Shown here: positions 1-3,000 of the stretch, one piece after another
How the letters are laid out: every line of letters begins with the position of its first letter
Position numbering within the stretch: the stretch's first letter is position 1
Source of the DNA: Escherichia coli
Lineage (GTDB): Bacteria; Pseudomonadota; Gammaproteobacteria; Enterobacterales; Enterobacteriaceae
Reading direction: 5' to 3' (one strand)
Assembly: GCF_003334255.1 (NCBI RefSeq)
Contig: NZ_QOWU01000125.1
DNA: 3,229 nt
Made by a program: the position numbers

Positions 1-3000
1 ACCTTCATCGCAGCACCTTCCTGTTTTTATGCCCCATGAAAAAAAACGGCAGGCAAAACTCCTGTGCCTGCCGTCATACTTCATGTCACCTTCAGCAATT
101 AAAACTCGAAGTTCACACCAACGTTCCAGGAGGCATCCCCATCACTGAATGCCACGCCTGCTTTCGCTGCGGTCTGCTCGTTGAAGCGGTAACCCACACC
201 CACTGCCAGTGCCTGCTGGTCGCTGTAACCACCAACCGCTGCCGTGGCGTTGAATTTACCCACACTGTACGGCTGGAACAGACCTGTCAGGGCCGCAGAC
301 TGTGCTGCTGCACGCTTCATTTCCTTGTGGTTTTCATTAATCTGGCGCTGCTGGCTGTCCAGACGTGCTGAATGTTGCTGCAGCGTACGGGTATTGGCTG
401 CAATCGCCTTGCTGTTTTTCTCAATGGATTGCGTGTTACGGGTGACACGGCCATCAATGGCACCAACTGCTGCATCAATACGGTCAGTACGACCAGACAG
501 GGCCACCAGACCATCGTTAACAGAAATGGTGTTCTTTGCACCTTCTGCACGGGTCAGGGTGCCATCAGAACTCACACCAACCAGTGTGCGGGATTCGACT
601 TTTGCAGCTGTTGCAGCAGCCGCAGCATCAATCTTGTCGGTACGCGTGGTCAGTTCACCAAGATTTTTCTTCTGCGCTTCAAGCTCGCCTTTCTGAGCAT
701 CAAGCTTGCCTTTCTGAGCTTCAAGCTCATTCGCAACAATGGTGGAGTTGGCGGACTCCCATGCCAGATAGCGCTGCAAAGATACGCGTTCTTTTATTTC
801 ATTCGGTGTTACAGCCACATTTCCATACTCATCCAGGCCGACGTTGGTTTCCATCTGCTGGATTGCTGAAACGCGGTTGTACAGGTCACGGATATTCTGT
901 TCTGTCAGGAGGTTTGTCTTAATATCATCAGTTTTCCCTGATGCCGCAGCCTTCATGAAATCATGAACTTCTTTATCATAAACAGTAAATGTTGTTGAGC
1001 CGTCTGCGGAGGTAATTGTAACATTACCATTGCCATCTATTTTACTGAGAAGTGGAATCGGCTTATTTCGCTCTTTTTCCACATCACCTAAGCCACCCCA
1101 ATCAATATGTGCCGTTTTATTATCTGGGTTATAATATACTTTATAAATACTCCCAGCGCCGTTCTGAGCATTTAAAGCAGAATAAGATTGCTCAGCAGCC
1201 ATAATATCAAAGCTAACCCCAAACAAAACACCTGCCATTGCCGCAGACAAAACAGCCTTTGTAAATTTCTTGCTCATGTGGTATACCCTATAAAATTATC
1301 TGTATACAAATAAAACAGTTCAACATCGGATATATAAAGAAAATCTGATGTCTCGCCGCTATCATGAGCTTACTCCTGAAGAAATTCCGAATTTTAATAT
1401 GAAGTTTTTCGGAATTTCCTTACTATAACGTCGGTGATATCACGTTCGCGAAGGGATATCCGCATTACGACTGGCCTGCCACTTATGCTGTCTCTTTATT
1501 CATCAACAATTTGTATACGGTTACATATTTAATTGTGAAGTTAGTCACAAAAAGAAGAAAGTCAAATAATCAAATTGTGCTTAACTGTTTACATCAGCAC
1601 AATCTGATGACCATTGAAGGACGCACTAAATTATTTTCAGCAATCCCTCAGCCTACGAAAATTCTGTATTTGATAATTGTTTTATTTGCTCTCTTTTTAT
1701 GCAGCCATTCTGTTGCTTATAAAAAAGCACCACTATCCGCGCCCTCATCTCAATATCTTTGTCGCCGGATAAAAATAACTATCAACCACAAGTATCATGC
1801 TCTCGGGGAGCGCGCACTCCCCCACTTTTTTTATCCCTGACAGGGTCAGGAGGCCGTTGCATCTCCTTTAATTATCATTGCCAGATTATTTCCTCGACCT
1901 GAGTATTCTTTATTTAGCCATAGCTTTGTAGCAAGGGGCTGGAGCGCCCCTCTTTTTTTCACCTGTCAGCCATGCCGACCTTATACGCCAGTATAGCTTC
2001 CGCATCACCCAGCGCTTCAATCTCTTTTTTCATCGTGCGCTGTCTGACATGAATTTCCAGACCTTTGGTAAACATCGCCTGCTCTGCAGCAGCACTCAGA
2101 GCAATCAGTGTTTCAGCGTCCATCGGTACGTCATTATTGTCCGCATCCGTCCAGAAAAACTGCTCCGGCAGTTTCCCCGCTTTCGCTGCCGCCACCGACG
2201 GCTCAAGACGCGTCTGCGTTGACTTCCCGTAGTCCCATTTACGCCCATTGTGCTCAAACGTGTAGTTCGCCGCTTCCATCGCATTACGCCAGGCATTAAT
2301 TTCCACCTTTTTCCGTTCACGTGACTGTGTTAAAGCTTCCGGCGGTTCTTCATACGGCTTAATCTCTCCATACCTGCCGGAAATTAAATCAGTAAAAAGT
2401 TGTCGTCCGTGATTTTCCGGATCATTTTCTGACGCAGTAAAAGGAAACCATTGCTCACCAATTTTTATCTCACAGGAAATATTACCCAATCGAGTATATA
2501 CCGCCCCCCTGACGTCTGTTACAACAATCGCCATTCTTCCCCCTGTATTACACAATGCGTTGAAATAACGTTAAGTTTGTTGTCATGGTCTGCTCATCGT
2601 ATCCGGGAGCACCCAGACTTAAAGCAGACACAAAAGCCCGCCATGTCCCCGGGATACTGTTTCCGGCATTATGAACAATCGAGAACGTGGGCGAATACGT
2701 GACGCCAACGCGGTAAAGAATCGCCACTTCAGTAATTTTTTCGCCATTGATATTCTCTTTAATTGCACTTTCACTTTCGAGAGTCGATATCGAACCAAAT
2801 AAGAAAGAGCCAACCGCATATTTTTCTGTGGATACATTACCATTCCTGCCTGCTGCCCCCTGCGGCCCTGCCGGACCACGAGGGCCTGCCGGGCCGGTTT
2901 TCCCCTGCGGCCCCGCGGGACCTGTTGCTCCGGGTTCGCCTTTGTCCCCTTTTGGCCCCGGGGCACCTTTGGCTCCGGCTGCACCAGCCGGTCCCTGAGG

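Follow-up and report, generated by a model that had tools for sequence, protein, structure and literature searches.

A gene start behind the eibA terminator of prophage P-EibA: orf-156A, predicted to encode a small TosE-like LuxR-type regulator

The stretch of DNA analysed here (the window) comprises 3,229 nucleotides (nt) of an Escherichia coli genome (assembly GCF_003334255.1, contig NZ_QOWU01000125.1), and at its low-coordinate edge a candidate gene start lies on the minus strand behind the adhesin gene eibA. We consider it very probable that minus-strand positions 22..6 are the translation-initiation region of orf-156A, a gene of the lambdoid prophage P-EibA, that its product, as predicted, is a small regulator, and that expression is likely to occur via transcriptional read-through. 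These coordinates hold nothing new: the feature at the edge is a correctly recognised and long-annotated gene start. The added value of this analysis concerns the product, which is 'hypothetical' in most records and can now be described, from profiles and structure prediction, as a TosE-like LuxR-type protein with a degenerate receiver domain.

Up to the window edge the minus strand reads CATAAAAAC / TTTTTTTTCATGGGGCATAAAAAC, followed by AGGAAGG-TGCTGCG-ATG-AAG-GT. The Shine-Dalgarno (SD)-like AGGAAGG (16..22) stands 7 nt ahead of the ATG start codon (6..8), from which it is separated by the spacer at 15..9, and positions 1..5 hold AAG (Lys, codon 2) and the first two bases, GT, of the Val codon 3. 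A preliminary description made from the window alone had given the same placement (AGGAAGG 22..16, spacer 15..9, ATG 8..6, AAGGT 5..1), which is exact on direct reading; it had also put the site after the adhesin terminator, and the eibA hairpin (74..46) with its T's down to 39 does precede it. Because an in-frame TAA (27..29, seven codons before the ATG) shuts the frame on the 5′ side, the ATG is the earliest start that this frame allows, and the next start candidate does not occur before Met59. The protein begins with MKVILATRNRYLEYG, and out of 156 codons all those after codon 3 start beyond the window.

Extension past the edge was possible through GenBank record AF151091.1 (prophage P-EibA of E. 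coli ECOR-9), of which positions 1966-5194 correspond to the window minus strand at 99.7% identity; window position equals 5195 minus record position. In this record (Sandt & Hill 2000) orf-156A is annotated at 5187..5657 and encodes a protein of 156 amino acids (aa), AAF63235.1. Window position 8 is record position 5187, the window ATG is the annotated start at 5187-5189, and the record and the window show the same gene with no difference at the site. The expectation in the preliminary description that another minus-strand gene begins here is therefore supported: the frame continues open for 156 codons in agreement with the annotated coding sequence, and an early stop past the window edge, for which we looked, does not occur. 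The window ATG is the true start codon of orf-156A, a gene that GenBank has carried as annotated since 2000.

Comparisons with related loci argue that orf-156A is a real gene under purifying selection. Across six orthologous loci the ratio of nonsynonymous to synonymous substitution rates (dN/dS) was 0.08-0.2 and differences fell mostly in third positions, with counts by codon position of, for example, 2/4/18 and 35/29/80. The N-terminus MK[VF][IL]LATRN is conserved to ~50% identity, and Met1 is nearly invariant in the family. The SD position is purine-rich with similar spacing at all loci examined, while its letters vary (AGGAAGG, ACAGGTGA, GAGGAG, GGGAAG); AGGAAGG is unchanged in NCTC9112, and P-EibE and KY174 have other purine-rich motifs instead.

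The window by itself gives a weaker signal, and several of its properties weigh against our interpretation. Generic sites that combine an SD 4-mer with an ATG numbered 7 in the window and 10 ± 3 in shuffled sequences, so the SD and ATG motif by itself is not above chance and the in-window signal is weak when taken alone. The exact 17-mer from AGGAAGG to ATG is unique in the sequence, as found by a post hoc pattern test, and the anti-SD pairing energy of this ATG (-7.8 kcal/mol) ranks 4 among 105 ATGs. One could then suppose that the motif arose by chance and marks no true gene start, the open reading frame (ORF) being spurious or translation beginning elsewhere; a strong terminator just upstream and the failure to find a promoter-like site fit this supposition as well as the shuffled counts do. 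We give it next to no likelihood. The purifying selection on the 156-codon frame, the conservation of the family, N-terminus included, at identities as low as 31-50%, and the confident predicted fold of ORF-156A all stand against it, and the upstream TAA, together with the absence of another start before Met59, leaves the window ATG as the sole sensible start. The selection and conservation data effectively refute a chance motif. What makes the gene start convincing is external sequence together with its place between genes, behind a terminator; the confidence of the preliminary description properly rested on context and still needed sequence from outside the window.

Altogether 44 related proteins were identified, essentially all from E. 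coli. The same strain carries the paralogues orf-156C/D/E in the same position, with protein identities of 97% (after eibD), 97% (after eibC) and 69% (after eibE), and copies also stand behind tail-fibre genes in eib-less lambdoid and Shiga toxin (Stx) phages (phage 2B8 and Stx1a phages). A literature search for orf-156 together with E. coli found no paper. Annotation of the family is uneven: an intact 180-aa ORF-156-like frame lies at about 4010-4550 of NZ_CP020106.1 (strain 13E0780), where RefSeq marks short pseudogene fragments only, and at 4001-4543 of the Stx1a phage record LC744182, which leaves the frame unannotated. The family thus appears under-annotated. Many O157:H7 genomes retain just a 106-nt remnant of orf-156.

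For the product, direct database comparisons gave little. Neither ORF-156A nor any of the 19 family members matched Pfam at E ≤ 10, including Response_reg and GerE (PF00196); ORF-156A had no match in NCBIfam, matched only phrog_6585 (function unknown) in PHROGs, and gave chance matches only when its single sequence was compared with the PDB by phmmer. The profile of 19 members returned four PDB matches, all of them helix-turn-helix (HTH) domains of LuxR/GerE type, weak (E 0.065-0.33) and in register over residues ~94-149; when the profile was broadened with distant members, GerE (1fse) was reached at E 0.0021. TosE-like members also matched NarL-class models over their HTH parts (E 5e-4 to 5e-3), though these matches fell short of the cut-offs.

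The structure prediction points in the same direction. AlphaFold2 with the family alignment gave a model of ORF-156A with a predicted local distance difference test (pLDDT) score of 92 and a predicted template modelling score (pTM) of 0.87, in which strands 2-6, 25-27, 46-51 and 67-72 alternate with helices and four helices occupy 102-153. The top Foldseek matches in the PDB were all response regulators of the NarL/FixJ class (RcsB, FixJ, EvgA, DesR, VraR, LiaR and VpsT), with probabilities of ~1.0 and template modelling (TM) scores of just 0.3-0.5, and the C-terminal four-helix fold superposes on the NarL/GerE DNA-binding domain. The predicted architecture, a receiver-like domain joined to a four-helix LuxR-type HTH, is therefore like that of GerE and of the NarL/FixJ class (RcsB, EvgA, FixJ, DosR), but ORF-156A is ~50 residues shorter, and the N-terminal domain of the model has four strands and does not form the (beta-alpha)5 receiver fold. 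Strand 1 is followed by Thr7-Arg8-Asn9 where a receiver would have the acidic pair. At the close of strand 3 (46-51) stands Asp52, which does not vary among 22 sequences and from its position would correspond to the acceptor Asp. No histidine kinase gene was found in any neighbourhood examined, which is a further difference from the NarL/FixJ class. We infer that the N-terminal part is a shortened receiver-like alpha/beta domain, joined to a C-terminal LuxR/GerE (NarL-type) HTH, and that ORF-156A would be an orphan LuxR-type regulator, probably phosphorylation-independent. Judged from the model and the profile searches, it would act as a small cytoplasmic regulator that may bind DNA, possibly coupled to adhesin transcription.

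Just past the window, orf-60A (AF151091 5657-5839) begins within the orf-156A stop, in a TGATG overlap that suggests translational coupling of the two genes. Its product, a membrane protein of 60 aa, is basic in the N-terminal half and has a hydrophobic helix on the C-terminal side; it matches PHROG 9340 (phrog_9340), function unknown.

ORF-156A might also not bind DNA at all, its C-terminal helices serving instead as a module like sigma-70 region 4 that binds another protein, for example RNA polymerase, an anti-sigma-like factor or possibly ORF-60A. Weak matches to Sigma70_r4 and to extracytoplasmic function (ECF) sigma factors do occur beside the LuxR ones, and the product of the translationally coupled orf-60A is anchored in the membrane, as expected of an anti-sigma factor. 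However, the top matches, from profiles and from structure, are GerE and the NarL DNA-binding domain, and cross-matches are expected because sigma region 4 and the LuxR HTHs are related folds. In addition, orf-60 is missing or non-overlapping at other loci, and we regard a sigma-like module as very unlikely.

The nearest described relative is the TosE-position protein of the tos adhesin operon. Among 1.84 billion representative proteins searched, only 37 relatives of ORF-156A were present, by which measure the ORF-156/TosE-like family is very small. Its distant full-length members P0046, P0049 and P0050 share 47%, 37% and 31-32% identity with ORF-156A, and each of their genes adjoins genes of type I secretion system (T1SS) or RTX type. 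In E. coli ABU 83972 the P0050 gene comes directly after genes that encode a regulator of the PapB family, TolC, a T1SS ATP-binding cassette transporter, HlyD and a very large repeat protein; a gene for a 169-aa GerE protein comes next. This gene order is the one published for tosRCBDAEF; we therefore infer that P0050 is the TosE-position protein, an assignment that follows from operon order and not from a named record.

This TosE-position protein of the tosRCBDAEF operon of uropathogenic E. coli aligned with ORF-156A end to end in BLASTP (32% identity over 151 aa, E 2e-30; profile E 2e-33). The two proteins are of similar length (160 versus 156 aa) and have in common the motifs LTMxEM, KTV and KNG and the invariant Asp at the end of strand 3. 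The genes also resemble each other in position, each being immediately 3′ of an adhesin gene and behind a hairpin and T-run. Their settings differ: orf-156A lies in a prophage accessory region and tosE in the aspV island, and the upstream adhesin is a trimeric autotransporter in the former and the T1SS RTX protein TosA in the latter. Furthermore, tosE is the first of two LuxR-family genes after tosA, whereas orf-156A is followed by orf-60A, without a TosF-like GerE partner; the TosF-position protein was itself compared as a possible relative of ORF-156A, and the comparison was not significant. TosE-like genes 3′ of adhesin or secreted-repeat genes were found after eibA/C/D/E, tosA and a HemolysinCabind gene. 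TosE and TosF are reported to suppress motility (PMC5956150). The TosE-like assignment suggests that ORF-156A may have a regulatory role tied to the adjoining surface-protein genes.

More generally, a LuxR/GerE-type regulator beside a surface-adhesin gene is a recurring theme in E. coli (PMC4844996). HyxR and HyxA (the AutR/AutA positions), EcpR, GadE and DctR are likewise small LuxR-type regulators by adhesin or acid-resistance genes, and it is the theme that is alike. Neither HyxR and HyxA, whose genes neighbour the upaB/hyxB autotransporter, nor EcpR showed any relationship to ORF-156A (hhalign probability <1%), and the same held for GadE and DctR (hhalign probability <1%), small LuxR proteins whose N-terminus looks similar.

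The question of how orf-156A is transcribed depends on the terminator ahead of it. After eibA, the minus strand carries an intrinsic-terminator-like hairpin (74..46), annotated as the stem_loop at 5121..5149 of AF151091, with a T-tract (45..39), the feature as a whole occupying 39..74. In the predicted RNA fold a 9-nt loop closes an 11-bp stem, and for the 100-nt region the minimum free energy is -33.6 kcal/mol (z -3.4); a simple terminator scanner overlooked the hairpin because its loop limit was 8 nt. The terminator is kept, with sequence variation, in four loci. From the end of the T-tract to the orf-156A ATG there are ~30 nt, and the brief stretch from terminator to SD shows no conservation between P-EibA and P-EibE. 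A consensus scan, which can miss weak or activator-dependent promoters, found no sigma-70-like promoter between the eibA stop and the orf-156A ATG. One candidate spotted by eye (TTGCCT-19 nt-CATAAA) is poor and not conserved in P-EibE or KY174. With no sigma-70-like promoter fitting into the gap from terminator to ATG, transcription of orf-156A is most likely by read-through. Such read-through may be partial and come from eibA in lysogens, or may take the form of Q-antiterminated late phage transcription on induction.

A hairpin and T-run directly upstream of an ORF-156/TosE-like gene were seen in three unrelated contexts: besides the eibA locus, after tosA (3590-3613 of locus L014) and after the tail-fibre gene of phage 2B8 (about 3795-3825 of locus L004). 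This suggests a common 'terminator then regulator' layout for these genes.

The second form of read-through can be taken further. If orf-156A belonged to the phage lytic programme, it would be real but part of a Q-antiterminated late transcript with the tail-fibre genes, and no Eib-coupled regulator of the lysogen would be involved. Late-operon antitermination in lambdoid phages passes terminators, and so would bypass the one that stands between eibA and orf-156A. Homologues lie directly behind tail-fibre genes in the eib-less phage 2B8 and in Stx1a phages, and eib appears to have been inserted later, between orf-191 and orf-156. On the other hand, full-length homologues occur in non-phage chromosomal adhesin or T1SS loci (the tos operon and others), where a lytic role is impossible, and orf-156A itself lies in an accessory 'moron' region beside the virulence genes eaaA, nleA and espM2. 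We therefore hold a purely lytic role to be rather unlikely, and keep the small regulator expressed by read-through as the best explanation.

By analogy with TosE and TosF, one may speculate that, whenever the surface-protein gene ahead of it is being transcribed, ORF-156A adjusts host gene expression. A wider conjecture, which we think unlikely as it stands, is that ORF-156 and TosE form an Enterobacteriaceae-restricted family of orphan pseudo-receiver LuxR regulators behind leaky terminators of unrelated adhesin genes, and that their dose reports adhesin transcription and turns down motility or other host programmes. The adhesin classes concerned would be a trimeric autotransporter, an RTX/T1SS adhesin and phage tail fibres. 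If this were true, a moron adhesin in a prophage could reprogramme the lysogen. In any case, the position of orf-156A beside the virulence genes eibA and eaaA provides a lead on how Eib prophages may influence host gene expression.

Among the neighbouring genes, eibA, upstream of orf-156A, encodes an immunoglobulin-binding trimeric autotransporter adhesin and occupies 99..1277 on the minus strand, with its stop at 101..99. The only promoter-like site directly upstream of eibA is at record positions 3872-3900; with this promoter upstream and the terminator downstream, eibA has the promoter-gene-terminator layout of a phage 'moron'. On the other side, the serine protease autotransporter (SPATE) gene eaaA comes after orf-60A in AF151091.

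Further upstream on the minus strand, a tail-fibre ORF (2548-3132) contains long collagen-like Gly-X-Y repeats, and is followed by orf-191A (1959-2555), a DUF4376 tail-fibre-assembly-like gene. Collagen-like prophage proteins of pathogenic E. coli have been discussed (PMC3368898). Between orf-191A and eibA lie ~680 nt of non-coding sequence (1278-1958), with the promoter-like site just mentioned for eibA and an annotated stem-loop at record 3777-3814 (window 1418..1381); an Rfam scan of the entire window found no RNA family. In NCTC9112, the IS21-family element ISEc12 (istA/istB) lies at 1258-3560, between an orf-191-like tail-fibre-assembly gene and eib.

All 10 bases that differ between the window and AF151091 fall within the 3′ end of eibA, at window 218-315 on the minus strand, and cause two amino-acid changes, T345S and Q354E. 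At these sites the window has the base of the eibC paralogue in 10/10 differences and the NCTC9112 base in 8/10. From this pattern, the segment looks like a patch of recombination or gene conversion between eib paralogues, or else the window may represent another isolate or assembly of P-EibA.
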